Notes: generated by a model not told the origin, from the letters alone. Positions 9,755-63,671 are shown, counted from the stretch's first letter. The stretch is 64,000 nucleotides of DNA from Planctomycetota bacterium (GCA_965222115.1 CBDCTJ010000007.1:2624001-2688000), one strand, 5' to 3'. Numbers and translations: made by a program.

Positions 9755-9933
9755 CGTTACCCGTTACCCGAATCCCGTCACCCGGACTCAAGTGTGATCG
9801 CTCAATGATCGATTCGCGCCGGTTCGTGGACGTGGACGTGGACGTGGACGTGGACGTGGACGTGGACGTGGACGTGGACGTGGACGTGGACGTGGACGTG
9901 GACGTGGACGTGGACGTGGACGTGGACGTGGAC
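9755..9933 (+). repeat. Repeat module: heptamer run + block X + (GTGGAC)18
   Basis: CCCGTTA CCCGAAT CCCGTCA, then CCCGGACTCAAGTGTGATCGCTCAATGATCGATTCGCGCCGGTTC, then 18 GTGGAC units (9826-9933). Confidence 0.95.
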
Positions 9934-9935
9934 GA

Positions 9936-10310
9936 TCAAGGCTCGTCGAACCTTCGTTGAAGCACGAACAACATAGCGGCGGATCGCTCTAGTATGTTCA
10001 TGACACCTGAGATTGCGGCCTCGCTGGAGAGTCCGAGTAGTAGAGCCTGATGTAGAGCGGCAATGGCCTCGGTGCGTTCGGCGTGTGCGATGTCGTACGC
10101 TTTGCGTTTCTCGGCTGGCCGTCGTTTCGAGAGTCCTTCGGCGACGTTTAGGGCAACGCTGACACTTGCGCGCCTGAGCTGATCTGCGAGCTTTGCGTGG
10201 CCCCGAGGCCATGCCGCGCAGGTTGCTACGCACTCGACTGCCGCGGCCTGCGAAGCACGGTAGACATCGAAGCGTTTGAGGTACTCGAGCGTGGAAGTCG
10301 CGCTTGTCAT
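9936..10310 (-). CDS. Four-helix bundle protein, subfamily A copy 1 (TIGR02436 / 23S rRNA IVS protein / Avd-like)
   Basis: 124 aa. Family signature FDVY...LADQLRRASVSVALNVAEG...YDIAHAE..E, with GGAG upstream of the ATG. Three close paralogs in the window. Confidence 0.88.
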   Translation of the reverse strand: MTSATSTLEYLKRFDVYRASQAAAVECVATCAAWPRGHAKLADQLRRASVSVALNVAEGLSKRRPAEKRKAYDIAHAERTEAIAALHQALLLGLSSEAAISGVMNILERSAAMLFVLQRRFDEP

Positions 10311-10467
10311 GATGGAACTCCGGCGTGAAAGGAGCGCAAGCCGTTTGCTCGCGTGTGCCCTTCGCAAAAGAGCCGAAGGCGAAGGAGGGCGCACGCGAGC
10401 GGACCGTACGAACAAGGTCCCGCGTGGACTCGGCAACCCGTTCCATGCTGGAGTTCCATCACAAGCG
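10301..10467. ncRNA. Conserved structured leader A (fold-back covering RBS and start codon), copy 1
   Basis: Outer arms 10301-10323 and 10448-10467. Inner 15-bp stem 10347-10361 / 10386-10400. Conserved in four copies. Whether it acts as RNA or ssDNA is not established. Confidence 0.6.
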
Positions 10468-10510
10468 GCGCCCGCGCGTACCGGTCGCGCATGAGTTACC
10501 GATGGCCTGC

Positions 10511-10740
10511 CCCGAATCCGTCACCCGTTACCCGAATCCCGTCACCCGGACTCAAGAGTGAGCGTCCGATAATCGATTCACGCAGGCTCGTGGACGTGGA
10601 CGTGGACGTGGACGTGGACGTGGACGTGGACGTGGACGTGGACGTGGACGTCAAGAGCAAATGGCCTTGCCATTTGCGCAAAGACCCTGAGTAAGCACCA
10701 GCGGATCTTTGATCCGCGCGGTGCGCATCGAAGGGTGGTC
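10511..10740 (+). repeat. Repeat module: heptamers + X + (GTGGAC)10 + hairpin block Y
   Basis: GTGGAC x10 at 10590-10649. Y = GAGCAAATGGCCTTGCCATTTGC..GACCCTGAGTAAGCACCAGCGGATCTTTGATCCGCGCGGTGCGCATCGAAGGGTGG. Confidence 0.95.
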
Positions 10741-10795
10741 GTCGTAGGCCAAGGGCGCGAATCGGTGCCAGGAGCGAACGTGTGGAAGGGGTGAG

Positions 10796-11218
10796 CTACT
10801 CGCGCCGTACGTACTTCTGCAGCTCTTCCACATGCTCCTGCTCTTCGCGCACCATGCCGCGTGCGTACTCTTCAAGGGCGACTTCGTTCTCGGGAATGAG
10901 TTTGAGGAGCGCAAGGTAGCCATCAACGGCGGCCTTCTCTGCTTCGAGGTTGGACTCAAGCATTTCCTGGACATTGAGGCTCTTTGTTTCCCAGGCCTTT
11001 TGGGCCTCAATATTGGGCTGACTGCCAAGCGAAACGATCTTCTCGCCAAGTTGAATGGCGTGCTGCAGGCTCTCTTGCGCATTCGCCCGCAGGTAGTTGA
11101 CGATGGGTTCACGGCCCCAACCGAAGACCATGAAGCTGTGGTGGAGGTAGCGATTGACGCCTTCCATTTCCATGGCGAGCAGACGATTGAGCTGATCGAT
11201 GAGCGCTTGATTTTGCAC
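10796..11218 (-). CDS. Bacterioferritin / ferritin-like protein
   Basis: LNRLLAMEMEGVNRYLHH, ESLQHA, LEAEKAA and EEQEH di-iron type motifs. GTG start with GGAGG RBS. Confidence 0.85.
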   Translation of the reverse strand: MQNQALIDQLNRLLAMEMEGVNRYLHHSFMVFGWGREPIVNYLRANAQESLQHAIQLGEKIVSLGSQPNIEAQKAWETKSLNVQEMLESNLEAEKAAVDGYLALLKLIPENEVALEEYARGMVREEQEHVEELQKYVRRE

Positions 11219-11286
11219 GGGGCCTCCGAAGGTCAGGGTCAGCCGCAGAGGGTAGCCCGAGTCGTGGCTGAGGCTACGATCCTCCC

Positions 11287-19119: not shown

Positions 19120-19129
19120 GCTTTTCAGC

Positions 19130-24065: not shown

Positions 24066-24126
24066 TGAGGCGCGTGCGCCGACTAAGCAGGTGATCACAC
24101 TCCACGAAGATCGTGAATTCGATGCC

Positions 24127-24228
24127 GTGGCCGTGGACGTCGAGAGCAAATGGCTTTGCCATTTGCACGAGACCCTGAGTAAGCGCCAGCGGATCTTTGA
24201 TCCGCGCAGTGCGCATCGAAGGGTGGAC
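24127..24228 (+). repeat. Solo block Y with GTGGAC ends
   Basis: GTGGCCGTGGACGTCGAGAGCAAATGGCTTTGCCATTTGC...GCGGATCTTTGATCCGC...CATCGAAGGGTGGAC. Confidence 0.9.
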
Positions 24229-24308
24229 GTTTAGGAACCGCTGACACCGTCGATTGAAAGAACCGTCGCGAAGGGAATGCGAGATTGGCGGATGGCGCTC
24301 GTCCGGAA

Positions 24309-44716: not shown

Positions 44717-44736
44717 AAAAGCGTGTATCGGAGAAG

Positions 44737-44782: not shown

Positions 44783-44881
44783 TATAGTCGTCTCTTCTCT
44801 TTAGCGTTCTGTAGGGACGCCGCCCGACTGCATGCAAGTCCGAGTGAGCTCCTGCGATTTCTAATCTGCGCAGAACGCACC

Positions 44882-45036: not shown

Positions 45037-45402
45037 TCGGTTACTTCCACGGCGGGTCGGCTTGAACGATTCGATGTGTATCGAATCGCACGTCGTGTCG
45101 CGGCCAGTATTCACCAGCTCTGTGGATCGCTGCCTCGAGGCAACGCCGAGCTTGCAAGCCAAGCTCGACGAGCCTCTACAGCCGTCGTCCTCAACATCGC
45201 GGAGGGTATCGGCCGCGCTGGCGCGGGCGCCAAACACCGCTCGTTCTCAATTGCTCGCGGTGAGTGCGTCGAGGCCGCCGCGGCACTCGACCTCATGCAG
45301 GCGATGGGCATTATCACAGGAGCCAGCGCCGCACCGACGCTTCATGATCTAGATCGCGTCCGCGCGATGCTGAATGCGCTGATCCGCCGCTGGCGGGAGT
45401 GA
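45016..45402 (+). CDS. Four-helix bundle protein, subfamily B copy 1
   Basis: 128 aa. FDVY...LASQARRASTAVVLNIAEG...FSIARGECVE, with GGAG 8 nt upstream. Confidence 0.88.
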   Translation: MSYSKQFSVTSTAGRLERFDVYRIARRVAASIHQLCGSLPRGNAELASQARRASTAVVLNIAEGIGRAGAGAKHRSFSIARGECVEAAAALDLMQAMGIITGASAAPTLHDLDRVRAMLNALIRRWRE

Positions 45403-45475
45403 GGCACGCCCATTCGCAGCGAACCTCGCAAAAAGTGCCGGGTGTAATTTTGCACCGGTTAGCGCACTCCCGCCA

Positions 45476-45844
45476 CCCGTCACCCGTTCCCCGAAACCCG
45501 TCACCCGGACTCAAGTGTGAGCGTCCGATAATCGATTCGTGTCGCGTTCAAAACGTGGACGTGGACGTGGACGTGGACGTGGACGTGGACGTGGACGTGG
45601 ACGTGGACGTGGACGTGGACGTGGACGTGGACGTGGACGTGGACGTGGACGTGGACGTGGACGTGGACGTGGACGTGGACGTGGACGTGGACGTGGACGT
45701 GGACGTGGACGTGGACGTGGACGTGGACGTGGACGTGGACGTGGACGTGGACGTCGAGAGCAGATGGGCGAAGCCCGTTTGCACGAGACCCTGAGCAAGC
45801 ACCAGAGGATCTGTGATCCGCGCGGTGCGCATCGAAGGGTGGAC
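45476..45844 (+). repeat. Repeat module: heptamers + X + (GTGGAC)33 + Y
   Basis: 33 units at 45555-45752. Y hairpin variant GCAGATGGGC-GAA-GCCCGTTTGC. Confidence 0.95.
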
Positions 45845-45858
45845 GCCCTCGATGCCTA

Positions 45859-47709: not shown

Positions 47710-47752
47710 CGCATGCATGTGCTACTCGACATATGTCCCGCGCTCATCGTTT

Positions 47753-47833
47753 CCCTTTTCCCGTTTCCCGTCACCCGGAATCCAGATTTGTGCCGGGTGC
47801 ATTTTCGCGCGCGGTGTGCATCGAAGGGTAGAC
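47753..47833 (+). repeat. Degenerate repeat module (heptamers + tail of Y)
   Basis: CCCTTTT CCCGTTT CCCGTCA CCCGGAA ... CGCGCGGTGTGCATCGAAGGGTAGAC. Confidence 0.75.
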
Positions 47834-47835
47834 GC

Positions 47836-48210
47836 TCATGGAACGTTGAATCGCCGCTGGAGGACGAACAACATCGCGGCGGTTCGCTCCAGCGTGTTCA
47901 TGACTCGCGAAACTTTGAGTTCACTCGAGAGACGGAGTAGGAGCGCGTGATGTAGAGCCGCGATGGCTTCGGTGCATTCGGCGTGTGCAATGTCGTAGGC
48001 CCTGCGCTTCTCGGCTGCCCGCCGTTTCGATAGGCCTTCGGCGACGTTTAGGGCAACGCTGGTGCTTGCGCGCCTGAGTTGATCGGCAAGTTTTGCGTTG
48101 CCTCGTGGCCACTCGGCGCAGATGGCGACGCACTCGACTGCCGCGGCCTGCGAAGCACGGTAGACGTCGAAGCGTTTGAGGTACTCGAGCGTTGAAGACG
48201 CGCTTGTCAT
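47836..48210 (-). CDS. Four-helix bundle protein, subfamily A copy 2
   Basis: 124-aa close paralog of 9936-10310. Confidence 0.88.
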   Translation of the reverse strand: MTSASSTLEYLKRFDVYRASQAAAVECVAICAEWPRGNAKLADQLRRASTSVALNVAEGLSKRRAAEKRRAYDIAHAECTEAIAALHHALLLRLSSELKVSRVMNTLERTAAMLFVLQRRFNVP

Positions 48211-48366
48211 GATGGAACTCCAGTTGAAGGGAACGCAAGCCGTTTGCTCGCGTGTGCCCTTCGCAAAAGAGCCGAAGGCGAAGGAGGGCACACGCGAGCG
48301 GGTCGTACAAACAGAGCCCGCGTGACAGCGACAACTCGTTCCCAAACTGGAGTTCCATCACAAGCG
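48201..48366. ncRNA. Conserved structured leader A, copy 2
   Basis: CGCTTGTCATGATGGAACTCCAGTT / AACTGGAGTTCCATCACAAGCG. Perfect inner stem GCTCGCGTGTGCCCT/AGGGCACACGCGAGC. Confidence 0.6.
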
Positions 48367-48417
48367 GCGCCTGCGCGTACCGAACGCGCTATGGCAACCG
48401 GCGGTGCTGTCCAAGGC

Positions 48418-48651
48418 CCAGTCACCCTTCACCCGTTACCCGTTACCCGTAAACCGAATCCCAGACTCAAGGGTGAGCGTCGGATGGACGATTCGCGCCG
48501 TCTTTACGTGGACGTGGACGTGGACGTGGACGTGGACGTGGACGTGGACGTGGACGTGGACGTGGACGTGGACGTGGACGTGGACGTGGACGTGGACGTG
48601 GACGTGGACGTGGACGTGGACGTGGACGTGGACGTGGACGTGGACGTGGAC
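48418..48651 (+). repeat. Repeat module: heptamers + X + (GTGGAC)24
   Basis: 24 units at 48508-48651, no Y block. Confidence 0.93.
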
Positions 48652-48673
48652 GTGGAATCAGATTGGGTGCATC

Positions 48674-52524: not shown

Positions 52525-52594
52525 GTGGCGGGAAGGAAGTAGATCCTGCGAAACAGGCCGGATGGAGTCTGAAGGATTCGTGCGTATTTCCTTA

Positions 52595-52764
52595 CCGTTA
52601 CCCGAAACCCGAAACCCGGGCTCAAGTGTGAGCGCTCAATGATCGATTCACGCCGGGTCGTCGAGAGTGAATGGCTTTGCCATTTGCACGAAGACCCTGA
52701 GTAAGCACCAGCGGATCTCTGATCCGCGCAGTGCGCATCAAAGGGTGCGCATCGAAGGGTGGAC
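52595..52764 (+). repeat. Repeat module: heptamers + X + Y with zero internal GTGGAC units
   Basis: ...GATCGATTCACGCCGGGTC is joined directly to GTCGAGAGTGAATGGCTTTGCCATTTGC. 14-nt duplication GTGCGCATC(A/G)AAGG. Ends in GTGGAC. Confidence 0.9.
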
Positions 52765-52810
52765 CTCAAGTAGCGTAATAGTCGTATGCGTTCGGTACCG
52801 ATGGACCACC

Positions 52811-52965
52811 GAACTGTTTGCTGTGTGACGTGAACGCGCACTGGGCAACACCCTTTGAGAAGTGCTACGTGCATGCCCCATTCGCCATGAGGGCGAGGGC
52901 ACGCACTCGCATTCCCGCGGGTGTTTCCTCGTGGAGTTTCTCGTATGTCACACAGCAAACAGTTC
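52811..52965. ncRNA. Conserved structured leader B, copy 2
   Basis: GAACTGTTTGCTGTGTGAC (52811-52829) is the exact reverse complement of GTCACACAGCAAACAGTTC (52947-52965). Confidence 0.62.
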
Positions 52966-53331
52966 TCGATTACTTCCACGGCAGGTCGGCTTGAACGTTT
53001 CGACGTGTATCGAATCGCACGCCGTGCCGCGGCCAGCATTCACCAGCTTTGTGGATCCCTGCCGCGAGGCAACGCCGAGCTTGCAAGCCAAGCTCGACGA
53101 GCCTCTACAGCCGTCGTCCTCAACATCGCCGAGGGCATCGGGCGCGCTGGCGCAGGCGCCAAGCACCGTTCGTTCTCCATCGCTCGCGGCGAGTGCGTCG
53201 AGGCCACCGCGGCACTCGACCTCATGCACGCGATGGGAATCCTTACAGGCGCCCACGCCGCGCCAACGCTTCGCGACCTTGACCGCGTTCGCGCAATGTT
53301 GAACGCGCTCATCCGGCGCTGGAGGGAATGA
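52945..53331 (+). CDS. Four-helix bundle protein, subfamily B copy 2
   Basis: 128-aa close paralog of 45016-45402. Confidence 0.88.
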   Translation: MSHSKQFSITSTAGRLERFDVYRIARRAAASIHQLCGSLPRGNAELASQARRASTAVVLNIAEGIGRAGAGAKHRSFSIARGECVEATAALDLMHAMGILTGAHAAPTLRDLDRVRAMLNALIRRWRE

Positions 53332-53339
53332 GGGGGTGT

Positions 53340-53572
53340 CCCGTTACCCGAGACCCGTTACCCGGACTCAAGTGTGAGCCTCTGATGATCGATTCGCGCC
53401 GTTCGTGGACGTGGACGTGGACGTGGACGTGGACGTGGACGTGGACGTGGACGTGGACGTGGACGTGGACGTGGACGTGGACGTGGACGTGGACGTGGAC
53501 GTGGACGTGGACGAAACCCTGAGTAAGCACCAACGGATCTCTGATCCGCGCGGTGCGCACCGAACGGTGGAC
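53340..53572 (+). repeat. Repeat module: heptamers + X + (GTGGAC)18 + Y lacking first hairpin
   Basis: 18 units at 53405-53512, then GAAACCCTGAGTAAGCACC...GGTGGAC. Confidence 0.93.
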
Positions 53573-53578
53573 ATGATG

Positions 53579-54283
53579 CTAGTTCAGTTCCGGTCGTGTC
53601 CCTGGAGGCACAGGAGGGTCACTTGCGTAGGCTTGTTTTTCTAGATACGAAACGAGCTGGGTGAAGCGTTTCAAGATGTCGGGCTCGGCCAATAACGCAT
53701 AGCGTTCATTAGGTTCAAGATCGCTAGCCGTGGCGACGGCATCCGCGTAGCGGCCCGGGCTCGCGTCCACGCCGCGGGTTTGATTGGCCATGCGGCGCAT
53801 TTCCCAAATGATGTTTTGACGGCCCGGGAGCATGTCGAGTGCGCGCTTCATAGCCTTTGCGATGTCGCCCGATTGATCGGGGCGCATGGTGTCACCAATG
53901 ACTTCGACGCGCGCGCGACGATACGGGTCGTGTGGAATCTCATCGACAATGCGGGCGCGGAAAAGTCCGTAGAGCAAAATGTCGCACTTACCGGTGGGCT
54001 GTTCGTGGTGGCGAAATATTTGCCCCACCGTAATGACGTCGTGAATCGGTGGGTTGCCGAGGTAGGAATCGTCAGCGTCGTCCCAGCCGGGCTTGAGCAG
54101 CGCGGTGGCGATGAGGCCGTCGTCTTCGAGGGCGTCGGTCACCATCTTCACGTAACGCCGTTCATAGACTTTGAGGGGCGCAAGGCCATCAGGAAAGAGC
54201 ACCAGATTAGGTAGGGGAAACAGGCGTACGTCCCCGGAGAAGTTCTCCAGCACCATCTTCAAATTCAGGGGCGGCTTCTGCAT
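53579..54283 (-). CDS. LON peptidase substrate-binding domain protein
   Basis: LFPLPNLVLFP...PLKVYERRY, with no ATPase or protease domain. Confidence 0.85.
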   Translation of the reverse strand: MQKPPLNLKMVLENFSGDVRLFPLPNLVLFPDGLAPLKVYERRYVKMVTDALEDDGLIATALLKPGWDDADDSYLGNPPIHDVITVGQIFRHHEQPTGKCDILLYGLFRARIVDEIPHDPYRRARVEVIGDTMRPDQSGDIAKAMKRALDMLPGRQNIIWEMRRMANQTRGVDASPGRYADAVATASDLEPNERYALLAEPDILKRFTQLVSYLEKQAYASDPPVPPGTRPELN

Positions 54284-54322
54284 CGCCGTACTATACCCGC
54301 TGGTTCACCCCGGAGTCGGTCC

Positions 54323-55147
54323 ATGCAACATGACGCGCTCGAGTCGCTGCTGCGCGATGTTCGCGAGGGCTCGGTCGATGTGGCCACCGCCATGGGGCGC
54401 ATTTCGGGCGTTACAAACGCTGCACCAGCCTTTCAAGCAGAAGCAGTGATTGCGCGCTTGGACGCGAATCGTGCCGATCGCTGTGGATTCCCGGAAGTGA
54501 TCTATGGTGAATCCAAAGAGCCGAGCGACTTGGCTCGACTTGTACGGGCGGCCCTGGACGCGTCCGGTTCGTTGCTGGTTACGCGTGCGGATAGGCGACG
54601 ATTTGAGGCGGTCTTGAACGCCGTACCGGTCGCGATGTATCACGAACGCGCTCGCTGCATCACCGTCATGCCTGAGGCTCCGACGGAATCTCGAACGGGC
54701 GTATTGATCGCCTGTGCCGGTACAAGTGATGTGCCGGTGGCTGAAGAGGCGCGGGTCACGGCCTCAATGATGGGGGAGGCACCCGAAACGCGCTACGACG
54801 TGGGCGTGGCAGGACTTCAACGAATCCTGGCAGAGCTCGACACGCTACGAATGTCGCGCGTCATTGTGGTCGTAGCGGGTATGGACGGGGCGCTTCCGAG
54901 TGTGGTCGCGGGACTGACCGCGGCGCCCGTTATCGCAGTACCCACGAGTGTTGGGTACGGCGCGGCATGGCAGGGCGTGGCGCCCCTGCTCACCATGCTA
55001 AATGCCTGCGCTCCCGGCGTGTCCGTGGTCAATATCGACAATGGCTTCGGTGCAGGCTACCTGGCCGCAACCATCAACGCCATGGCTTCCGCGCATCCAG
55101 AACATGCGAGCCACCAATCTCTGAAGCGTGCGGTGCCCTCCGAGTAG
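54323..55147 (+). CDS. larB: Nickel-pincer cofactor biosynthesis protein LarB
   Basis: GFPEVIYGESK, AGTSDVPVAEEA, DVGVAG, AGMDGALPSVV, PTSVGYG, VVNIDNGFGA. Confidence 0.93.
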   Translation: MQHDALESLLRDVREGSVDVATAMGRISGVTNAAPAFQAEAVIARLDANRADRCGFPEVIYGESKEPSDLARLVRAALDASGSLLVTRADRRRFEAVLNAVPVAMYHERARCITVMPEAPTESRTGVLIACAGTSDVPVAEEARVTASMMGEAPETRYDVGVAGLQRILAELDTLRMSRVIVVVAGMDGALPSVVAGLTAAPVIAVPTSVGYGAAWQGVAPLLTMLNACAPGVSVVNIDNGFGAGYLAATINAMASAHPEHASHQSLKRAVPSE

Positions 55148-55157
55148 CCTCTCGGGC

Positions 55158-56339
55158 ATGAATGCACCCTCACCGGCCACCCTCGTTCTTGCCGACGGGT
55201 CGGTCTTTCACGGACGACACTTCGGCGCCGACAAAGCGCGCGCGGGCGAAGTCGTGTTCAACACGGCCATGACCGGATACCAAGAGATCGCGACCGATCC
55301 GTCGTACGCGGGGCAAATTGTCTGCATGACGTACCCCCACATCGGCAATACCGGCGTGAATGACGAAGACCTCGAAGCGGCCCACCCGTGGATCGAGGCC
55401 TTCGTCGTGCGCGAACATTCGCCGATTGCCAGCAACTTTCGTTCGAACAACACCTTGGATGGATGGCTCAAGGCACACGACATCATTGGCATAGAAGGTG
55501 TTGATACGCGGCGCCTCACGCGTCATGTACGAACTATGGGAGCCATTGGCGGTGTCGTCGGCGGACCGGGAAGCAAGACCGACGCACTTTTGGAACAAGC
55601 GAAAGCGTTGCCTTCAATGGCCGGCATGGATCTTGTGACCACGGTGACATGCAAAGAGCCGTATTCCTTTGGTGAAGCGTGGCCCGAGCCATGGTTCCCT
55701 TCGCCAGAACACATCGGACAAGGACGCGACGGTGTTGGGCCTTCGAAGGCCGATTCGCTCTCGCCCAAGTCGGTCGTTGTCATGGACTTTGGTGTGAAAC
55801 GCAACATTCTTCGTTCACTTCGTACCTTTGGCTTAGAGCCTTACGTGGTTCCTGCCTCGACCTCAGCCGCCGACATTTTGGCGCGTAATCCCGACGGCGT
55901 GTTTTTTAGCAATGGTCCGGGAGATCCCGCCGCCGTTACCTATGCCATTGACACCATCAAGGAACTGCTGGGCAAGGTTCCCACATTCGGGATTTGCCTC
56001 GGGCACCAACTGATGGCGTTGGCGGCGGGGGCAAAGACCCGCAAGCTCAAGTTCGGTCACCGCGGCGCCAACCATCCCATTCGCGAACACGCCACGGGTC
56101 GCATAGAAATCACGAGCCAAAATCACGGCTTTGTGGTGGAAGAAGAGAGCCTGGGCGGCACCCCATTCAAGCCTACGCACACCAACCTCAACGACAACAC
56201 CAATGCCGGCATGGCCAGCGAGGCCCTACGCGCATTCGCCGTCCAGTACCACCCCGAGGCCGCCCCCGGTCCACGCGACGCCGGGCATCTGTTTTATCGC
56301 TTTCGCCAGCTGATTGAAGGTAGTGCAACGTTGGTGTGA
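55158..56339 (+). CDS. carA: Carbamoyl-phosphate synthase small subunit
   Basis: GEVVFNTAMTGYQE, SNGPGDP, GICLGHQ, ITSQNHGF, VQYHPEAAPGP. Confidence 0.97.
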   Translation: MNAPSPATLVLADGSVFHGRHFGADKARAGEVVFNTAMTGYQEIATDPSYAGQIVCMTYPHIGNTGVNDEDLEAAHPWIEAFVVREHSPIASNFRSNNTLDGWLKAHDIIGIEGVDTRRLTRHVRTMGAIGGVVGGPGSKTDALLEQAKALPSMAGMDLVTTVTCKEPYSFGEAWPEPWFPSPEHIGQGRDGVGPSKADSLSPKSVVVMDFGVKRNILRSLRTFGLEPYVVPASTSAADILARNPDGVFFSNGPGDPAAVTYAIDTIKELLGKVPTFGICLGHQLMALAAGAKTRKLKFGHRGANHPIREHATGRIEITSQNHGFVVEEESLGGTPFKPTHTNLNDNTNAGMASEALRAFAVQYHPEAAPGPRDAGHLFYRFRQLIEGSATLV

Positions 56340-56363
56340 CCCCAGTGAGCTTCCTCGCGGTTG

Positions 56364-56465
56364 CCCGTTACCCGTGATGCGCGGCCCGACACCCGTTACC
56401 CGATACCCGGACTCAAACGTGAGCGTACGATGGTCGATCTGTGCAGCGCGCATCGAACGGTGGAC
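56364..56465 (+). repeat. Degenerate repeat module (heptamers + X fused to tail of Y)
   Basis: CCCGTTACCCGATACCCGGACTCAAACGTGAGCGTACGATGGTCGAT...GCGCATCGAACGGTGGAC. Confidence 0.85.
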
Positions 56466-56467
56466 GG

Positions 56468-56842
56468 TCAGGGACCGCCGAATTTGTGTTGAAGCACGAA
56501 CAACATGGCGGCGGCGCGTTCTAGGGTGTTCATCGCCTGCGACGTTGCGCGCTCGCTTGCGATTCCAAGCAGCTGGGCGTGATGCAGCGCAGCGATCGCT
56601 TCGGTGCACTCGGCGTGGGCGATGTCGTATGCCTTGCGCTTCTCGGCGGGGCGGCGCTTCGCCAGCCCCTCTGCGACGTTGAGTGCAACGCTGGTACTAG
56701 CGCGCCGGAGTTGATCGGCGAGTTTTGCGTGGCCTCGAGGCCATGTTGCGCAGAGCGCGACGCACTCGACTGCTGCTGCCTGCGAAGCACGGTAGACATC
56801 GAAGCGTTTGAGGTAATGGAGCGTGGAAGACGCGCTTGTCAT
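56468..56842 (-). CDS. Four-helix bundle protein, subfamily A copy 3
   Basis: 124-aa close paralog of 9936-10310. Confidence 0.88.
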   Translation of the reverse strand: MTSASSTLHYLKRFDVYRASQAAAVECVALCATWPRGHAKLADQLRRASTSVALNVAEGLAKRRPAEKRKAYDIAHAECTEAIAALHHAQLLGIASERATSQAMNTLERAAAMLFVLQHKFGGP

Positions 56843-57000
56843 GATGGAACTCCAGCGTGAAGGGAACGCAAGCCGTTTGCTCGCGTGTGCCCTTCACAAA
56901 AGAGCCGAAGGCGAAGGAGGGCACACGCGAGCGGGTCGTACAAAAAGTCCCCTCGTGACAGCGACAACTCGTTCTCAAGCTGGAGTTCCATCACAAGCGC
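56832..57000. ncRNA. Conserved structured leader A, copy 3
   Basis: GCGCTTGTCATGATGGAACTCCAGC / GCTGGAGTTCCATCACAAGCGC. Confidence 0.6.
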
Positions 57001-57041
57001 AGCCCGCGCGTAACGGTCGCGCATGCCTTGCCCGCGGCCCG

Positions 57042-57345
57042 CCCGGAATCCGTCACCCGTATCCCGTCATCCGGACTCAAATGTGGACATCCGATGATCG
57101 ATTCACGCCGGTTCGTGGACGTGGACGTGGAGAGCAGATGGGCGAAGCCCATTTGCGCGAAGACCCTGAGTAAGCACCAGCGGATCTCTGATCCGCGCAG
57201 TGCGCATCGAAGGGTGGACGCAAATTGGTGCCGGGCGCGAACGTGCGTGCCCCGCGACCCGTTCCCCCGTACCCCGAGCCCCGATTCCCGTCACCCATCA
57301 CTCGTTACCCGACACCCGGTCGCCAGTGTGAGCGTTCAATGAACG
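57042..57345 (+). repeat. Repeat module: heptamers + X + (GTGGAC)2 + Y, followed by a second degenerate heptamer + X block
   Basis: GTGGAC x2 at 57115-57126. Y ends at 57219. Second heptamer run from 57251. Confidence 0.9.
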
Positions 57346-57454
57346 ACTTGCAGTGCAAATTGCCACCGGGAGCGAACTCCGCGAATTGCGCTCATTTTGA
57401 GTCGTTCCCCGTCATCTGCCCGGGTAGAATCCGCTTTTACACGGAGAATGCGCC

Positions 57455-58777
57455 ATGAGCGTAACCTGTGTCTTTGGTATGCACTGGGGCGACGAGGGTA
57501 AGGGGCGCATTGTAGACCTGCTCGCCGCGCAGTCCGATGTGGTTGTCCGTTTTCAGGGTGGCGCAAACGCGGGCCACACCGTCATTGTGGACGACCAAAA
57601 ATATGTGCTTCACCTCCTGCCCTCGGGCGTGATTCAACCCAGCACGATCAATGTGATCGGAAACGGCGTCGTGGTGGATCCCGAAGTCGTGCTGGCCGAA
57701 ATCGACGAGCTTGTGGGCCGTGGGATCAAGCTCGATGGGCGTCTATTCATCTCGGACCGCGCCCACGTTGTGCTGCCGCATCACAAGTTGCTTGACCGTG
57801 CGTTTGAGGCGTTGCGTGGCGATGGCGCGCTGGGCACGACCTTTCGCGGCATCGGACCTGCATATTCGGACAAAGCGAGCCGAGACGGCGTGCGGATCGT
57901 TGACTTGCTTGAGACCAAACGTTTTGCTCCGGCGCTCACCATGGCGAAGCGCTACGGCGATCCGATTCTTGAGAAGGTGGGCATGGACCCCATCGACGTG
58001 GACGCGTCGGCAAAACAACTGTCCGCGTGGGGGAAACGATTGCGCCCCTTTGTTCGCGACACGGTTTCGTTTCTTCTTGATCAGCAAGAGAAGGGCGTGC
58101 GCATCTTGCTCGAAGGTGCGCAAGGGTACGCACTCGACATCGATCACGGCACTTATCCGTTTGTTACGTCAAGTAGTACGTGCCCGGCGGGTGCGGCTGC
58201 AGGCACGGGGTTGCCGCCGCGCGCGATCGACGAAATGGTTGGTGTTGTTAAGGCCTATAGCACGCGCGTGGGCGCTGGACCATTTCCCACGGCAGCGGAA
58301 CCGTCGGTCGCGGAACATCTTGGCAAGCACGGCGCCGAATTTGGCGCTACGACCGGGCGACCACGGGGCTGCGGCTGGTTCGATGGCGTGATCGCGAAGC
58401 GTGCCATTGAAACGCAGGGCGTCGATTCTGTTTGCCTCATGAAGATGGACGTGCTCTCGGGACTCACCGAAATCAAGGTGTGCACGGCCTACACATACCA
58501 AGGAGAAACGCTTACTGCGCCGCCGGCTTGGATTGGTGACTGGGACGACCTGAAACCGGTCTATACCACCTATGACGGTTGGAACGAGGACATTTCTGGC
58601 GTTCGGCACTTCATCGACTTGCCGGTCGCGGCGCAACATTACGTACATGCGATTGAATCGTTCCTCAACACGCCCATATCCATTGTGAGCGTGGGGCCGG
58701 AACGCGATCAGTTTATTGACATGACGCGTCCGCATCAATCTGTAAAAAACGTGGGTTCCAAAGTACAGGCCGGATAG
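57455..58777 (+). CDS. purA: Adenylosuccinate synthase
   Basis: WGDEGKG, GGANAGHT, EGAQG..LDIDHGTYPFVTSS, EFGATTGRPRGCGWFD. Confidence 0.97.
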   Translation: MSVTCVFGMHWGDEGKGRIVDLLAAQSDVVVRFQGGANAGHTVIVDDQKYVLHLLPSGVIQPSTINVIGNGVVVDPEVVLAEIDELVGRGIKLDGRLFISDRAHVVLPHHKLLDRAFEALRGDGALGTTFRGIGPAYSDKASRDGVRIVDLLETKRFAPALTMAKRYGDPILEKVGMDPIDVDASAKQLSAWGKRLRPFVRDTVSFLLDQQEKGVRILLEGAQGYALDIDHGTYPFVTSSSTCPAGAAAGTGLPPRAIDEMVGVVKAYSTRVGAGPFPTAAEPSVAEHLGKHGAEFGATTGRPRGCGWFDGVIAKRAIETQGVDSVCLMKMDVLSGLTEIKVCTAYTYQGETLTAPPAWIGDWDDLKPVYTTYDGWNEDISGVRHFIDLPVAAQHYVHAIESFLNTPISIVSVGPERDQFIDMTRPHQSVKNVGSKVQAG

Positions 58778-58806
58778 CGGCCTGGCACGAAAGAGGCACG
58801 TCGCGC

Positions 58807-59715
58807 ATGACCAGCGATTCCACGTCTACGTCAAAGAGCAGTCGCGATGTGCGCGTGCGACTCGTCGTAGCACCCATCGTCTTGGCCGTCGTATTGGGCA
58901 CGATCTGGCTCGCTGAACACTTCGAGTCGCGCCTTCCACTTCATCTCTTGATCATGTTTTTTGCCATTGGTTCAGGCATTGAGTTTGTGCGCATGCTTGC
59001 GCCGTCAGGGACAAGCGAGCGCCTCAAGGGCGGAGCGTTGGCGTGGATCACGTGCGGACTGCTTGCGGGGGTGGGTTTGATCGAGCTTCTGCGGCCCACG
59101 TCAAGTTACGTCGCCGATGCGGGTCTGCGCATGGAACTGCGCGTACTCATCGTCATCGCATTCACCTGGTGCATCTTGGTGGGCAAGTACTTCTTGGATA
59201 CACGTCACAAATCCACGTCCGAAATTGGCCGCGTCTTTCTGCCCGTGCTCTACATCGGCCTACCGCTCTCGCTAGCATGTGAAATTTGTGCTGGCCCTCT
59301 TGCGGCGCGTCGGGTCATGTGGGTGGTCTTGGTCGCCAAAGCGTGTGACATCGGTGGCTGGGTATTTGGCAAGCTGTTTGGCAAGCACAAAATGGTGCCC
59401 ACCGTGTCGCCAGGAAAGTCGTGGGAAGGCACCACGGGGGGCATTGTCCTGAGCATCGCCGCGGCGGTATTCCTTCCCGACCTATTCGGATTGCCTGAGT
59501 CCGAGTGGTCCGTAGCGATGCGCGTGGGATTCGGATTCATGGTGGGGGCGGCCACCATCTTGGTGGGCGTCACGCAAAGCGGATGGAAACGCCGTGCAGG
59601 CGTCAAGGACTCAAGCGCCCTGATTCCGGAGATGGGCGGCATCCTCGACATGACCGATTCGCTGCTCTTTGCGGTTCCGGTGGCGTATCTGTGGTATCGA
59701 TTTGTGGTGGCGTAG
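58807..59715 (+). CDS. cdsA: Phosphatidate cytidylyltransferase
   Basis: VSPGKSWEG, KRRAGVKDSSALIPEMGGILDMTDS. Confidence 0.92.
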   Translation: MTSDSTSTSKSSRDVRVRLVVAPIVLAVVLGTIWLAEHFESRLPLHLLIMFFAIGSGIEFVRMLAPSGTSERLKGGALAWITCGLLAGVGLIELLRPTSSYVADAGLRMELRVLIVIAFTWCILVGKYFLDTRHKSTSEIGRVFLPVLYIGLPLSLACEICAGPLAARRVMWVVLVAKACDIGGWVFGKLFGKHKMVPTVSPGKSWEGTTGGIVLSIAAAVFLPDLFGLPESEWSVAMRVGFGFMVGAATILVGVTQSGWKRRAGVKDSSALIPEMGGILDMTDSLLFAVPVAYLWYRFVVA

Positions 59716-59778
59716 TTGAACGCGTTAGAGTGGCCGGCCCTTTCGAAGACATATCATCAAAAGCACCACGAGTTCCAC

Positions 59779-60846
59779 ATGCCCCAAGTCCGCATCGCCA
59801 ACACCGGAGAAGCCGCGCAGCGCGTGTTGTTTGGTCCTATGGACAAACATCTGCGCCGGATTCGTGAGCATTTCGGCGTGCGCATAAGCGCTCGCAACGA
59901 AGTACTCACGCTTGAGGGCGACGATGTGGACGCGGTTGAAGATGTCGCGCGACGATTGAAGCGCGTGTTGGGTCGCATGAATGGGCGCACCGAGCCACCT
60001 GAGAACGAAGTCGAAGAGATTTTGCTTGGATCCGGAAAGCCATCGTCGAGTCGCAAGATTCGAACCTCAAACGGACCACGCACGGGCACAGGCCAAGCGC
60101 CTCACCGCATGTCGAAGACCACGGCGCGTGATCACGGCGGTTCGATTGCACCCAAACCAAAGACGCCGGGCCAAGAACGCTACATCGATGCCATCCGAGA
60201 GCACGACGTCGTGTTTGCCTTGGGGCCGGCGGGCACGGGCAAAACGTTTTTGGCAGTCGTAGAAGCCGTGCGTTGCCTACGAGACGGCACGGCCCGCAAG
60301 ATTATCCTCACGCGTCCCGCGGTGGAGGCAGGTGAGAAGCTAGGATTTTTGCCGGGTGATTTTCAAGCGAAGATCAATCCCTATTTACGACCGCTCTATG
60401 ATGCGCTGGGCGAGTTGCTAACGCACGCCGAAGTACAACGCTACTTCGAGGCCGACGTGATTGAAATTGTGCCGTTGGCCTATATGCGCGGTCGCACCTT
60501 GAAAGAGGCATTCATCATTCTTGACGAGGCGCAGAATACGACTCCCGCGCAGATGAAGATGTTTCTCACACGTATGGGCGAACGATCCAAAGTCGTCGTA
60601 AATGGCGACGCATCCCAGGTGGACTTGCCCGGTGGAACTACATCATCGGGGCTGAGTCAAAGCGTTCGCATTCTTGAGGATGTTCCCGGAATCGCCGTGG
60701 TTCGCTTCGCACCAACCGACATATTGCGTCATCCGTTGGTTCAACGCATTGTGGATGCCTATGACCGCGAAGACGATCGACGAGCAGCGAATGAGTCATC
60801 AAGCGACGCAGACGATGTGAGCGACGACGAATCGCAAGGCGCATGA
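59779..60846 (+). CDS. phoH: PhoH family ATPase
   Basis: [39 protein letters not shown]. Confidence 0.95.
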
Positions 60847-61310
60847 GTGGCGGTTCCCCAACGGCTTCCGTATCGATTGTCGATTGCGTAGAGATTCCCG
60901 GAGGTAAGTCGGTTTTCGAGCGACGCATGCAAGCTGTGGCACACATGGCGGCTGCCTATGCCGGGTGTTCGTTGGAGCTCGTCTATGTGGTGCTTGGGGA
61001 CGACGAGATGCGCGCGCAGAACAAAGCTGCGCTCAACCATGACTATCCAACCGATGTGCTCTCCTTTGACATGGGTCACACACACGACATACGTCACGGC
61101 GAGATCCTTGTGTCGGCCGACACCGCCGTTCGTGAAGCAGCATCTCGCGCACACAGTGGGGCAGATGAGTTGTGCCTGTATGCAGTTCACGGCACACTCC
61201 ACTTCGTGGGGTACGACGATCACGATCCCGCCGATCGAAGACGAATGCGTGCTGCCGAGAGGCGATGGCTACGCCGATTGGGTTGCAATGCAATCTACGG
61301 ACGTCGGTAA
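60843..61310 (+). CDS. ybeY: rRNA maturation RNase YbeY
   Basis: [19 protein letters not shown]. Confidence 0.93.
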
Positions 61311-61395
61311 TCGCCCCCGCCCTACTCACGCCCCCCGCGAATGATTGCCCTTTACGCCTCTCTCTCCGAGGATAGGGCGTCCTTCGGAGATCGTC

Positions 61396-62589
61396 ATGTC
61401 GAGTCAGCAGCACCTTGTCGAACGCGTCTTAGAAATGGGCGTGGCCACCCGTGAGCAGGTGGATGAGGCCCTTGAAATTTGCAGTCGGCTCAGTGAAATG
61501 GGCATGAAGTCGCGCTCCGTGATCGACGTTCTTTTCGAAAAGGAATACATCGACAAGGAAGTTTTCGATCGGCTCCAGCGCGAAGCCAAGCGTGTGGAGG
61601 GCAAAGAGCAAATTGCCGGCTATCGCCTCCTCGATCGTCTCGGTGAGGGCGCGATGGGTGCCGTCTATCGTGCAAAGCAGCTTTCGCTGGATAGAGAAGT
61701 GGCTGTCAAGGTTCTCGACCCCGAACTGGCGAGCAATGACGAGTACGTCAAGCGTTTCATGAGCGAGGCGCGCGCCGTGGCCCGACTCAATCACACAAAC
61801 ATTATCAGCGGCATCGATGTGGGCGACGCAGACGGCATCAAATATCTCGTTATGGAGTATGCCGACGGAATGACGGTGAGTTCCCTGCTTGAACGCGGCG
61901 GTGCGCTCGATGAAGAGCGCGCGTTGTGGGTTGTGCTCCAAATGGCTCGTGCCTTAGATCACGCGCATCGCAACAACTTGGTTCACCGCGACGTCAAACC
62001 CGACAACATCATCATCACGAAAGATGGCGTCGCGAAGCTGTGTGACTTGGGTCTTGCCCGATTGGAAAGCGCGGAGGGTGAGGCGCCCCAACGTATGGGC
62101 ACCCCCGCCTACATTTCGCCCGAGCAGGCTCGCGGCGATGTAACCGTGGACGAACGTACCGATCTCTATAGCTTGGGCGCCACGTGGTTTCACATGGTAA
62201 CCGGTCGCCCGCCCTACACCGGCAACGACGCAGGTGCTGTACTCGCCAAACACCTCACGGAACCCGTGCCCCACGTGCGAACAATCGATCCCACGATTAG
62301 CGAGATGAGCGATGAACTGGTCTTTGGTCTGCTCCAAAAGCGCCGCGGCGACCGAACCGAGTCCGCCAGCGTTTTGATTCCGCAGTTGGAATCCGCCATT
62401 CGCGAATTGCAGTTGGCTCGTGGTGCCAGCCCCTCCAGTGCGATGGGCGTAGCAGCGAAAGCAAAACCAGCCGCCGGTTCCATCAAGGTTCCTGTGCGTC
62501 CCGCAGCCCCGGAACCGCGCTCCGCGGATGTTCCCAGTCGTCCAAGTGCTCCGATCGCTCCAAGACCAAGGCGTCGGCGAAGGCGTTAG
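61396..62589 (+). CDS. Serine/threonine protein kinase
   Basis: LGEGAMGAVY, VAVK, HRDVKPDN, CDLG, GTPAYISPEQ. Confidence 0.95.
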   Translation: MSSQQHLVERVLEMGVATREQVDEALEICSRLSEMGMKSRSVIDVLFEKEYIDKEVFDRLQREAKRVEGKEQIAGYRLLDRLGEGAMGAVYRAKQLSLDREVAVKVLDPELASNDEYVKRFMSEARAVARLNHTNIISGIDVGDADGIKYLVMEYADGMTVSSLLERGGALDEERALWVVLQMARALDHAHRNNLVHRDVKPDNIIITKDGVAKLCDLGLARLESAEGEAPQRMGTPAYISPEQARGDVTVDERTDLYSLGATWFHMVTGRPPYTGNDAGAVLAKHLTEPVPHVRTIDPTISEMSDELVFGLLQKRRGDRTESASVLIPQLESAIRELQLARGASPSSAMGVAAKAKPAAGSIKVPVRPAAPEPRSADVPSRPSAPIAPRPRRRRRR

Positions 62590-62653
62590 GGTTCGCCTCC
62601 TAGCGGACAGTTTTCTGCACGTGGTTCCCGACTCTGTTTTCAGCGCCCGTATG

Positions 62654-62758
62654 CCGTTACCCGTTACCCGAGACCCGATACCCGATACCCGATACCCGAT
62701 ACCCGGTCTCAAGTGTGAGCATCCGATGATCGATTCGAGGCACGTTTAAGACGTGGAC
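62654..62758 (+). repeat. Repeat module: heptamers + X + (GTGGAC)1
   Basis: CCCGTTA CCCGAGA (CCCGATA)4 CCCGGTCTCAAGTGTGAGCATCCGATGATCGATTCG...GTGGAC. Confidence 0.9.
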
Positions 62759-62760
62759 GA

Positions 62761-63135
62761 TCACGGTTCGTCGAATCGGCGCTGAAGTACGAACAACATG
62801 GCGGCGGATCGCTCCAAGCTGTTCATGACGAGTGAGATTGCGGCTTCGCTGGCGAGACCAAGCAATAGCGCGTGGTGTAGAGCGGCAATGGCCTCGGTGC
62901 ATTCGGCGTGTGCGATGTCGTAGGCCCTGCGCTTTTCGGCTGGCCGCCGTTTCGATAGGCCTTCAGCGACGTTTAGCGCAACGCTGGTACTTGCGCGCCT
63001 GAGTTGATCGGCGAGCTTTGCGTGGCCGCGAGGCCATGCGGCGCAGATTGCGACGCACTCGATCGCCGCGGCTTGCGAAGTACGGTAGACATCGAAGCGT
63101 TTGAGGTACTCGAGCGTAGAAGAGGCGCTTGTCAT
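62761..63135 (-). CDS. Four-helix bundle protein, subfamily A copy 4
   Basis: 124-aa close paralog of 9936-10310. Confidence 0.88.
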   Translation of the reverse strand: MTSASSTLEYLKRFDVYRTSQAAAIECVAICAAWPRGHAKLADQLRRASTSVALNVAEGLSKRRPAEKRRAYDIAHAECTEAIAALHHALLLGLASEAAISLVMNSLERSAAMLFVLQRRFDEP

Positions 63136-63291
63136 GATGGAACTCCAGATGAAGGGAACGCAAGCAGTTTGCTCGCGTGTGCCCTTCGCAAAAAAGCCGA
63201 AGGCGAAGGAGGGCACACGCGAGCGGGTCGTACAAAAAGAACCCGCGTGAAAACGACAACTCGTTCCCAAGCTGGAGTTCCATCACAAGCG
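63126..63291. ncRNA. Conserved structured leader A, copy 4
   Basis: CGCTTGTCATGATGGAACTCCAG / CTGGAGTTCCATCACAAGCG plus the inner 15-bp stem. Confidence 0.6.
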
Positions 63292-63342
63292 GCGCCCGCG
63301 CGTACCGTTTGCGCTGGAGCTACCGGCGGTGCTGTCCAAAGT

Positions 63343-63671
63343 CCCGTCACCCGTTACCCGTCACCCGTTACCCGTCACCCGTTCCCCGTGACCCGTACTC
63401 AAGGGCGGGCATCCGATGAACGATTTGCGCCGTCTTAACGTGGACGTGGACGTGGACGTGGACGTGGACGTGGACGTGGACGTGGACGTGGACGTGGACG
63501 TGGACGTGGACGTGGACGTGGACGTGGACGTGGACGTGGACGTGGACGTGGACGTGGACGTGGACGTGGACGTGGACGTGGACGTGGACGTGGACGTGCG
63601 ATCTGCAATACCCGTTACCCGAACCCCGTCACCCGCTACCCGGGCTCAAGTGTGAGGCTCCGATGATCGAT
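63343..63671 (+). repeat. Repeat module: heptamers + X + (GTGGAC)26, then a second heptamer + X block
   Basis: 26 units at 63440-63595. Second block 63611-63671. Confidence 0.93.

Follow-up and report, generated by a model that had tools for sequence, protein, structure and literature searches.

Replication-linked orientation of a gene-carrying modular repeat family around the terminus of a Planctomycetota chromosome

A 64 kb stretch of contig C7 from a Planctomycetota bacterium (hereafter the window) contains a modular repeat whose copies had been noted to point, without exception, in the same direction. Is this uniformity tied to the direction of chromosome replication and, if so, at what stage in the life of a copy is it imposed?

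Organisation of the modules

Each module follows the order W-(CCCGNNA)n-X-(GTGGAC)0-33-Y, and modules alternate with small genes in the arrangement module-(cargo-module)n, the cargo-module junction falling at a fixed point directly 3' of GTGGACG. The modules form the non-coding arms of small cassettes with 23S-rRNA-IVS-type four-helix-bundle genes, a family specific to this lineage. An X profile for nhmmer, built from 14 window copies of the heptamers plus X, and a Y profile respectively returned 15 and eight matches in the window, all on the plus strand, bearing out the uniform direction noted earlier. Neighbouring host genes lie on both strands, as had been noted, according to crude gene calls. 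The heptamer CCCGTTA has 14 matches, a count equalled in none of 100 shuffles; 13 of these are on the plus strand (9760 to 63617), and the sole minus-strand match, at 3861, is inside an unrelated repeat-rich ORF of 2257 aa.

Eight loci were found in the window, the number originally treated as independent; all are within 54 kb on one replichore, and they are perhaps not independent. The first (9746-10742) opens with a plus-strand module, as are all those below, of CCCGNNA heptamers, the X core and (GTGGAC)18 (9746-9935). This is followed on the minus strand by cargo gene A (9936-10310), which encodes a 124 aa PF05635 four-helix-bundle protein and ends in a stop codon 2 nt away from the final hexamer, and by the conserved A leader (10311-10505, minus strand), containing nested inverted repeats with one arm over the ribosome-binding site and ATG. 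A module of heptamers, X, (GTGGAC)10, and Y (10510-10742) completes the array. The second locus (24100-24230) is a decayed module consisting of two hexamers and a full Y after a remnant of the X end, and the third (30540-30760) is a solo module of heptamers, X, hexamers, and an internally deleted Y. The fourth (44522-45846) comprises a module of heptamers, X, Y, and three degenerate hexamers (44522-44725), the plus-strand cargo gene B (45016-45402), encoding a 128 aa PF05635 four-helix-bundle protein, and a module of the W motif, heptamers, X, (GTGGAC)33, and Y (45440-45846).

At the fifth locus (47747-48655), a short module of heptamers, a W-like motif, and a Y end (47747-47835) precedes a minus-strand A gene (47836-48210) and a module of heptamers, X, and (GTGGAC)24 (48425-48655). 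The sixth (52580-53574) has a heptamer-X-Y module with a duplicated Y end (52580-52766), a plus-strand B gene (52945-53331), and a module of heptamers, X, (GTGGAC)18, and Y (53334-53574). The seventh (56364-57372) begins 25 nt past the carA stop codon with heptamers, X, and a Y end (56364-56467), continues with a minus-strand A gene (56468-56842), and finishes approximately 80 nt before purA with heptamers, X, three hexamers, and Y, then W, heptamers, and X (57035-57372). The eighth (62654-63696) contains heptamers, X, and one hexamer (62654-62760), a minus-strand A gene (62761-63135), and a module of heptamers, X, and (GTGGAC)26 followed by another heptamer-X unit (63340-63696).

Cargo A and B both match PF05635 above the cut-off (E=8.2e-14 and 2e-19, respectively), and all 18 PF05635 genes in the genome are inside these arrays. 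The claim that cargo orientation is fixed holds both in the window (A genes 4/4 on minus, B 2/2 on plus) and genome-wide, where A is antiparallel to the modules in 10/10 copies and B parallel in 8/8. The A stop codon is 2 nt from GTGGAC in nine of ten copies. None of the 18 genes is disrupted, and dN/dS values of 0.11 (A) and 0.08 (B) indicate purifying selection. The heptamer arrays flanking each cargo gene are direct repeats on both sides rather than inverted, stem-forming arms; the only inverted repeat around the cargo is that within the A leader.

The X hairpin and Y hairpin 2 have different sequences, and the module ends are blurred by the arrays. Y hairpin 2 shows compensatory pairs at four of seven positions. 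The Y part, and Y alone, consists of short, imperfect, intergenic palindromes kept by compensatory change, which places parts of the module under constraint. A search of the modules yielded neither promoter-like nor terminator-like sites. A related repeat in the same genome, Y-long, is present in 14 full copies.

Distribution around the replication terminus

The GC skew of the chromosome has its minimum at 612,539, where dnaA is located (598,933), and its maximum at 2,775,735. The motif GTGGGGG is strongly polar (691:67 in favour of the leading strand) and switches strand sharply between 2,773,247 and 2,773,923; the skew and this switch place the terminus at approximately 2.7735 Mb. Genome-wide there are 56 X matches at 32 loci. 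Fifty-two are on C7, every one within the 2.27-2.94 Mb stretch that brackets the terminus. The module family has multiplied solely in the part of the chromosome flanking the replication terminus, where the arrays have ordinary core genes as neighbours, among them carA, purA, and an aminotransferase gene.

Module orientation, replication, and gene direction

When module strand was compared with GC skew across the genome, the check that the original prediction had proposed, orientation was found to flip at the skew maximum. On the right replichore 18 loci are plus and four minus, while on the left one is plus and eight are minus (Fisher p=4.8e-4), so that modules are on the leading strand at 26 of 31 unambiguous loci (binomial p=1.9e-4). 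The strand carrying C-rich heptamers and G-rich hexamers is the leading-strand sequence, i.e. the lagging-strand template. Independent regex scans placed 25/26 loci with intact heptamer arrays and 18/20 with hexamer arrays on the leading strand. Of the five lagging loci, four have no intact arrays. Y-long served as an internal control and is not polar (six leading, eight lagging; Fisher p=0.011 against the modules). As the strand flip is found at the terminus, itself fixed independently by skew, GTGGGGG, and dnaA, orientation appears to be coupled to the direction of replication. The polarity statistics for this module family rest on one genome; in that genome replication-linked polarity is real, and coupling to replication direction is its best reading. 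This part of the earlier proposal therefore stands; insertion through an ssDNA, HUH, or group-II-like route would be a candidate mechanism.

Polarity could instead be a by-product of transcription, the module acting as a 3' element (terminator or UTR) that follows the direction of the upstream gene. A co-directional gene is on the 5' side at 24/31 loci, and 18/31 loci are between convergent genes, compared with 80/406 intergenic gaps in the region. However, only 57% of genes in the region (232/407) are on the leading strand, a rate against which 26/31 remains significant (p=0.003), and no terminator-like signal was found in the modules. Convergent sites are informative since either module orientation gives a co-directional upstream gene, and there 15 of 18 modules are leading. 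At the five loci with tandem lagging-strand genes, the module follows replication in four and the genes in one. Gene direction does not explain module polarity, and the transcriptional account is very improbable.

Copy history and the origin of polarity

The flanking genes differ at every array locus, and the module copies are separate insertions. Comparison with relatives has shown the array to be an insertion at one site, carA-purA, where the gap is approximately 90-170 nt in seven of 11 relatives and 1118 nt here, occupied by the array; among the relatives compared at this site, none had an empty site close enough in sequence to define the module ends. The copies are old, with a dS of approximately 0.6 among them, at which insertion events are not datable.

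Neighbouring loci tend to agree in orientation (16/19 pairs less than 30 kb apart), and the significance of polarity fades if clustered loci count as one unit: merging neighbours within 10 kb leaves 11 leading, three lagging, and two mixed (p=0.057), and within 30 kb eight, three, and one (p=0.23). Both results would be expected of a history without coupling, in which a founder near the terminus underwent mostly local, orientation-keeping spread and polarity is inherited rather than caused by replication. Terminus-symmetric inversions or inverted duplications would then have carried copies to the other replichore, automatically preserving their leading or lagging status; inversions symmetric around the ori-ter axis are reported to be common in prokaryotes (PMC5850607). 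Isolation by distance among B copies (r=0.76, p=0.003) suggests local spread, and the recurrence of the composite order X-A-X-B-X at four loci, one of them on the left replichore, indicates that whole arrays were copied as units. A sister cassette family in a same-order genome, G026, follows this grammar too, with CCCGAN arrays in direct orientation and genes lying antiparallel or parallel, and it is not polar (eight loci leading, nine lagging).

Against such a history, isolation by distance is absent among X and A copies, whose nearest relatives are mixed across clusters and replichores. For 11 of 12 left-replichore X copies the nearest relative is a right-replichore copy; copies crossed the terminus more than once, and left and right copies are coexisting paralogues rather than relocated originals. 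Orientation would also have to be kept over tens to hundreds of kb, and we know of no copying mechanism that does so. In G026, neighbouring loci can oppose each other (e.g. C65 at 44 kb and 57 kb), indicating that local spread in this system does not by itself keep orientation. On balance, a purely historical origin of the polarity seems doubtful.

Alternatively, insertion may be random and polarity arise afterwards by selection or mutational asymmetry, wrong-way modules being harmful or unstable and either lost or stripped of their arrays. Candidate causes are polar fork barriers formed by long strand-asymmetric arrays, head-on transcription or R-loops at G-rich (GTGGAC)n, and orientation-dependent slippage. 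This would fit the strongest polarity being that of intact arrays and the general lack of such arrays at lagging loci, as well as the constraint on the Y hairpins. Runs of up to 33 hexamers are perfect although their flanks differ by approximately 27%, and the arrays are therefore dynamic. Yet perfect C-rich arrays of 16-19 units occur in both orientations relative to replication in G026, the modules yielded no sites resembling promoters or terminators, and restriction to the terminus region is left unexplained. We therefore regard purging or decay after insertion as an unlikely source of the polarity.

Polarity is greatest in the copies that are best preserved, a pattern more in keeping with a bias imposed at insertion than with gradual purging, and we infer that polarity was set at that stage. 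The explanation that we favour overall, tentatively, is a terminus-region insertion family whose orientation is tied to fork movement, probably via a strand-specific step at insertion. The arrays would be insertions separating ordinary core genes, usually where two convergent genes meet at their 3' ends. The polarity would most likely arise because each copy is laid down at the replication fork in a strand-specific step, for example by an ssDNA or cDNA intermediate that pairs with, or inserts into, one template strand.

A polar host function

In fork traps of the Ter/Tus or RTP type and in KOPS, sites surround the terminus and keep one orientation on each replichore, and the modules share this layout. 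The arrays might accordingly be directional protein-binding sites in termination or segregation, either a Ter/Tus-like fork trap or translocase loading or orienting sites, with the four-helix-bundle proteins as binders. The intact, constrained cargo genes and an FtsK homologue encoded in the genome are compatible with this. Unlike Ter/Tus, RTP, and KOPS sites, however, the modules are long, diverged, gene-carrying, and absent from relatives: none of 40 relatives has the module, no other GTDB representative matched with the pattern used, and the whole system is absent from four well-assembled same-family genomes, making a core function unlikely. A KOPS-like role already belongs to GTGGGGG, a separate and strongly polar motif. 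A KOPS/Chi-like role was rejected for the short units of the module, since outside modules GTGGAC (1649:1487) and the CCCGNNA variants (43-48% leading) are unskewed. Given also the non-polar sister family in G026, a polar host function is improbable.

Mobilising machinery and comparison with known systems

Two Y1_Tnp (PF01797) matches are present in the genome, at C7 1,411,691 and 1,066,506, each separated from the nearest module by over 860 kb; the hairpins flanking the stronger (C7 1.41 Mb) are unrelated to the modules. No TnpB was found in the genome, nor a RAYT with the module palindrome in its flanks. An IS200/IS605-derived identity of the modules is disfavoured in that no Y1 transposase is encoded in or near them and the stronger of the two distant matches has no matching end hairpins. 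None of seven tyrosine recombinase (PF00589) matches adjoins an array; one of them is separated by 1.3 kb from a solo, inverted module. A PF00078 scan found six group II intron reverse transcriptases and one other, at 0.26 Mb, none associated with modules. No enzyme tied to the modules and no sign of their excision was found.

Integron cassette arrays include chromosomal ones with a fixed orientation to replication. The modules resemble attC-ORF-attC arrays in their alternation of site and cargo, fixed orientation of cargo to site, and constant-core junction, and an ssDNA-folded site, as in integrons, is one possible source of strand bias. They differ in being spread over numerous small arrays instead of gathered on a single attI platform, in having no integrase beside any array, and in showing no attC-like R''/L''-L'/R' symmetry by eye. 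An integron or CALIN array would be expected to have an IntI-type recombinase and attI beside it, and none of the seven recombinase matches is so placed.

BOX (A-Bn-C), BIME/REP, and NIME are modular intergenic repeats, mosaics of sub-units in variable copy number. The modules share with them the mosaic structure, intergenic position, preference for gene 3' ends, and hairpins (here those of Y) kept by compensatory change. To our knowledge, none of these repeats carries genes, is confined to the terminus, or flips strand there. Among the titles and abstract openings returned by a literature search, none appeared to describe such a repeat.

Orientation tied to replication, with the active or top strand being the lagging-strand template, is shared with IS200/IS605 elements and their PATE/MITE-like derivatives, as are hairpin-bearing, non-inverted ends. 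IS608 is reported to insert into the lagging-strand template, also at stalled or Tus-Ter forks (PMC5027513), and the attraction of this family to stalled or Ter-arrested forks described there parallels the concentration of modules around the terminus. Replication bias is described as specific to each IS family (PMC3971601). Unlike IS200/IS605 elements, the modules have no linked Y1 transposase or TnpB, have dissimilar X and Y hairpins, and hold heptamer and hexamer arrays and four-helix-bundle cargo.

The diversity-generating retroelement (DGR) protein Avd presumably belongs to the same fold family as the cargo proteins. Like the modules, Avd-dependent DGR retrohoming depends on orientation to replication, being reported as 7.6- to 24.6-fold better at replication-co-directional targets, with cDNA complementary to the lagging-strand template (PMC12875486). 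Here, the PF00078 scan returned only the six group II intron enzymes and the one other reverse transcriptase.

With ORF-bearing 23S rRNA IVSs and intergenic PF05635 cassettes, the family shares the PF05635 protein and a small cassette wedged between core genes. The Coxiella IVS is described as a selfish element of 428 nt that RNase III excises (PMC4990558). The cassettes here are, by comparison, chained, with direct arrays on both sides in this genome and in G026. Polarity to replication and confinement to the terminus region further distinguish them in this genome.

Module anatomy and cargo

The order of module parts is fixed: a degenerate CCCGNNA run leads into the core X (~45 nt), which is followed by 0-33 perfect GTGGAC units, and about half of the module copies end in a tail, Y (~100 nt). 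A short motif, W, lies between one Y and the following heptamer run. The original observation that all modules in the window share one strand was borne out: profile searches of the window placed 15 of 15 heptamer-plus-X matches and 8 of 8 Y matches on the plus strand. CCCGTTA itself occurs 14 times in the window, 13 times on the plus strand between 9760 and 63617. The sole minus-strand match falls inside a 2257-aa ORF (window 2-6775, +) that carries internal repeats of ~336 nt (families D11, D15, D16 and D19).

Cargo A and cargo B, the two types of gene found between modules, both encode PF05635 four-helix-bundle proteins. The genome has 18 PF05635 genes (10 A, 8 B), every one of them inside a module array. 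These arrays are built as module-(cargo-module)n; X h18 A X h10 Y (h18 denoting 18 hexamers) and X A X B X are examples. The modules belong to PF05635 cassettes, as a variant with direct rather than inverted arms. The fixed cargo orientation noticed earlier in the window holds for all 18 genes, every A being antiparallel and every B parallel to its modules. Each of the 18 retains an intact ORF, with dN/dS of 0.11 (A) and 0.08 (B) at dS of ~0.6-0.7. In 9 of the 10 A copies the stop codon lies 2 nt past the last GTGGAC, whether this derives from a hexamer array or from the end of Y.

The A genes share a conserved leader of ~190 nt with nested inverted repeats (window 10311-10505, 48211-48404, 56843-57037 and 63136-63329), the outer arms of which (for example 63124-63148 and 63272-63296) are predicted from sequence to sequester the ribosome-binding site and start codon. 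The leader of one cargo B gene (window 44737-44782, -) matched the Acido-Lenti-1 RNA motif below threshold, at 25 bits where the gathering score is 37 (E=0.0036). A coding role for X was considered and dropped: some copies have an ATG in X that shares its frame with the VD reading of the hexamers, but in others this ATG is mutated or in another frame. The modules yielded no promoter or terminator consensus. Above the gathering score, Rfam recognised only two parts of one group II intron in the window, and E-value scans of two loci and 12 loci of Y-long, the larger repeat family that includes Y, left X, Y and Y-long without a family.

Genome-wide map and replication landmarks

The 4.55-Mb assembly comprises 7 contigs, and the window covers 2,624,001-2,688,000 of contig C7. 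The X profile matched it 56 times, 52 times on contig C7 and 4 times on C3, and the C7 matches all lie inside 2,273,346-2,939,337. Merging X, Y, hexamer runs and cargo genes gave 49 clusters, with X present in 32. On C7 the cumulative GC-skew curve is lowest at 612,539, with dnaA at 598,933, and peaks at 2,775,735. Outside modules, GTGGGGG favours the inferred leading strand by 691:67, and it flips sharply from plus (2,773,247) to minus (2,773,923), converging at the GC-skew maximum. On these two grounds the replication terminus (ter) is placed at ~2.7735 Mb. The GTGGGGG counts on C1 (13:96), C3 (6:108) and C5 (3:27) assign these contigs to the left replichore, with the minus strand leading; the window itself has 16 plus-strand and 2 minus-strand copies.

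GTGGGGG is a candidate KOPS-like motif that would orient FtsK in this planctomycete lineage. An FtsK homologue is encoded on C1, and in a same-order genome, G026, GTGGGGG is polar too, on 13 contigs. An imperfect AT-rich palindrome (C7:2773943-2773970), a possible dif site, occupies the intergenic gap at the flip. The end of Y (GGTGCGCAT...) is reminiscent of a XerC arm as in dif; the reading as a Xer/dif-like (IMEX) site was dropped, since the sole dif-like AT-rich palindrome by the flip (C7 ~2,773,943-2,773,970) is unlike the Y end. Two small contigs, C6 (48 kb, GC 0.40) and C4 (29 kb, GC 0.55), depart from the GC of 0.59 elsewhere and may be plasmid, phage or binning contaminant.

Polarity relative to replication

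Apart from one locus of mixed orientation, X points a single way at each of 31 loci, and at 26 of these the module is on the leading strand (p=1.9e-4). Plotting module strand against cumulative GC skew, as suggested when the shared orientation was first noticed, revealed the expected switch at ter: right-replichore loci are 18 plus and 4 minus, and left-replichore loci 1 plus and 8 minus (Fisher p=4.8e-4). A profile-independent regex scan placed heptamer arrays on the leading strand at 25 of 26 loci and hexamer arrays at 18 of 20. The module family and all four-helix-bundle genes of the genome are restricted to the terminus region, and the strand switch coincides with the independent GTGGGGG flip. 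Outside modules the short units have no such skew (GTGGAC 52.6% leading, CCCGNNA variants 43-48%); the polarity is therefore a property of the module and not a KOPS-like oligomer bias. That the modules serve the host in some function that itself depends on strand is, in our judgement, highly improbable.

Gene direction was assessed with a crude gene caller made for this analysis. Genes of the region lie on the leading strand in 232 of 407 cases, and 26 of 31 loci exceeds that rate (p=0.003). Gaps between convergent genes hold 18 of the 31 loci, compared with 80 of the 406 gaps of the region; 15 of these 18 loci are leading, and gene direction cannot decide orientation there. Five loci have tandem lagging-strand neighbours; in 4 of them the module agrees with replication, and in 1 with the genes. 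Orientation as a by-product of transcription is accordingly the most improbable of the readings considered. For this genome, the polarity and its reversal at ter are genuine, and the direction of genes fails to account for them.

The tail Y belongs, as a subfamily, to Y-long, which has 14 full copies over C1, C3 and C7 (for example loci L026 (G000:C1:57050-57235), L027 and L028; module Y parts in the window include 10645-10742). This larger family is structured and ~130-190 nt long; compensatory changes maintain its two hairpins, affecting 4 of 7 pairs in hairpin 2, and it has conserved single-stranded motifs. It is non-polar (6 leading, 8 lagging) and was found in none of 40 relatives.

Independence of loci and cause of the polarity

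Each locus has different flanking genes, the flanks are core genes, and no recurrent recombinase gene stands among them. The pair carA-purA is adjacent in 10 of 11 relatives, with a gap of ~90-170 nt in 7 and of 860-1070 nt containing ordinary ORFs in 3; in the genome studied here the gap is 1118 nt and is occupied by an array.

Neighbouring loci less than 30 kb apart share their orientation in 16 of 19 pairs. With clusters as units, the leading:lagging:mixed counts are 11:3:2 at 10 kb (p=0.057) and 8:3:1 at 30 kb (p=0.23). These figures weigh against a simple reading of the polarity and favour the possibility that orientation was inherited from earlier copies and carried across ter by terminus-symmetric rearrangement. 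Isolation by distance was detected for B (r=0.76, p=0.003) and not for A or X, and the nearest relative of 11 of 12 left-replichore copies is a right-replichore copy. We consider inheritance with rearrangement unlikely, if the foremost of the alternatives.

The most likely cause, proposed tentatively and at somewhat less than even confidence, is that insertion of a copy involves a strand-specific step at the replication fork. It is preferred because polarity is strongest among the best-preserved copies, because copies related in sequence are intermingled between clusters and on either side of ter (the 11 of 12 copies), and because precedents exist in IS608, IS families and Avd-dependent retrohoming. 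IS608 targets the lagging-strand template and arrested forks (PMC5027513), the replication bias of IS families is family-specific (PMC3971601), and co-directional targets favour Avd-dependent retrohoming (PMC12875486). The polarity of the best-preserved copies is also in keeping with a bias arising after insertion, through selection or slippage asymmetry, which we judge unlikely to a slightly greater degree than inheritance; if selection set the bias, the modules would report naturally on replication conflicts or on repeat instability that depends on orientation. A bias set at insertion would instead point to fork-coupled, strand-specific mobility for PF05635 cassettes, whose protein family occurs in 81 of the 151 genomes sampled from the phylum.

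Most of these readings leave the restriction to the terminus region unexplained; it could stem from a founder near the terminus whose copies spread locally, or from insertion aimed at slowed forks. A more specific and speculative proposal, to which we give a low probability, is that PF05635 cassettes move via an ssDNA or cDNA intermediate laid into the lagging-strand template at forks slowing or meeting near ter, and that this genome, with its direct arms, keeps the footprint as a ter-centred, strand-flipping distribution. If true, this would be the first mechanistic handle on the spread of these ubiquitous cassettes.

A non-polar sister family

The same-order genome G026 contains 23 B-like matches (~40% identity), distributed over at least 13 contigs, in arrays of the same grammar, with direct CCCGAN arrays on both sides and genes antiparallel or parallel. 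With the leading strand set on 13 contigs from GC skew over 20-80 kb and GTGGGGG, 8 arrays are leading and 9 lagging; one leading locus has mixed arrays, and one lagging locus lies ~10 kb or less from the skew switch on contig C68. The polarity is therefore not general to this cassette type, and the sister family offers a ready natural comparison. On C68 the GC skew turns from plus to minus at ~60 kb, adjoining three four-helix-bundle cassettes (62.1-69.4 kb). Such cassettes form the ends of many G026 contigs.

Module DNA was found in none of 40 relatives, where the hexamer part alone was matched. A pattern scan of representative genomes found the module in no other genome; of its 2 matches, one, a coding stretch without heptamers, was taken as chance, and the other, on a Pyrinomonadaceae contig, is assumed to be so. 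A metagenome scan with protein A returned only relatives of at most 41% identity, without these modules. PF05635 was found in none of 4 well-assembled same-family genomes. The PF05635 family, that of the rRNA intervening-sequence protein, is very large and also occurs in many other phyla.

Known mobile systems and candidate machinery

Replication-linked orientation is known for some transposons, integron arrays and short polar motifs; we know of no case among gene-carrying modular repeats, nor of any mobility mechanism for the PF05635 family. Literature searches, covering papers without their supplements, found PF05635 only in a DGR review and nothing on planctomycete rRNA intervening sequence or four helix bundle proteins; those on STRR and heptanucleotide repeats gave nothing relevant. 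Replication-biased ssDNA elements and cassette arrays are nearest to the modules in behaviour, but no HUH enzyme accompanies the modules, and they lack both an integrase and attC, which places them outside both classes.

Tyrosine recombinases gave 7 matches in the genome, none at an array, and TnpB gave none. The Y1 transposase matches number 2, both distant from modules, the stronger with unrelated hairpins. This gene (C7:1411691-1412035, -) encodes a 153-aa IS200/RAYT-like protein and has its own REP-like hairpins, unrelated to the modules. Four contig runs from one study, aligned to window 53600-62640, had a depth of ~2-5 and were fragmented, with paralogous copies cross-mapping, and they were uninformative on excision or variants. 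Of the reverse transcriptases in the genome, six belong to group II introns and one does not. The six intron copies are 4 leading and 2 lagging, with a module near only one. The copy in the window (7041-8986, +; Rfam RF02005 and RF00029; RT ORF 7563-8891) precedes the first module locus by 760 nt.
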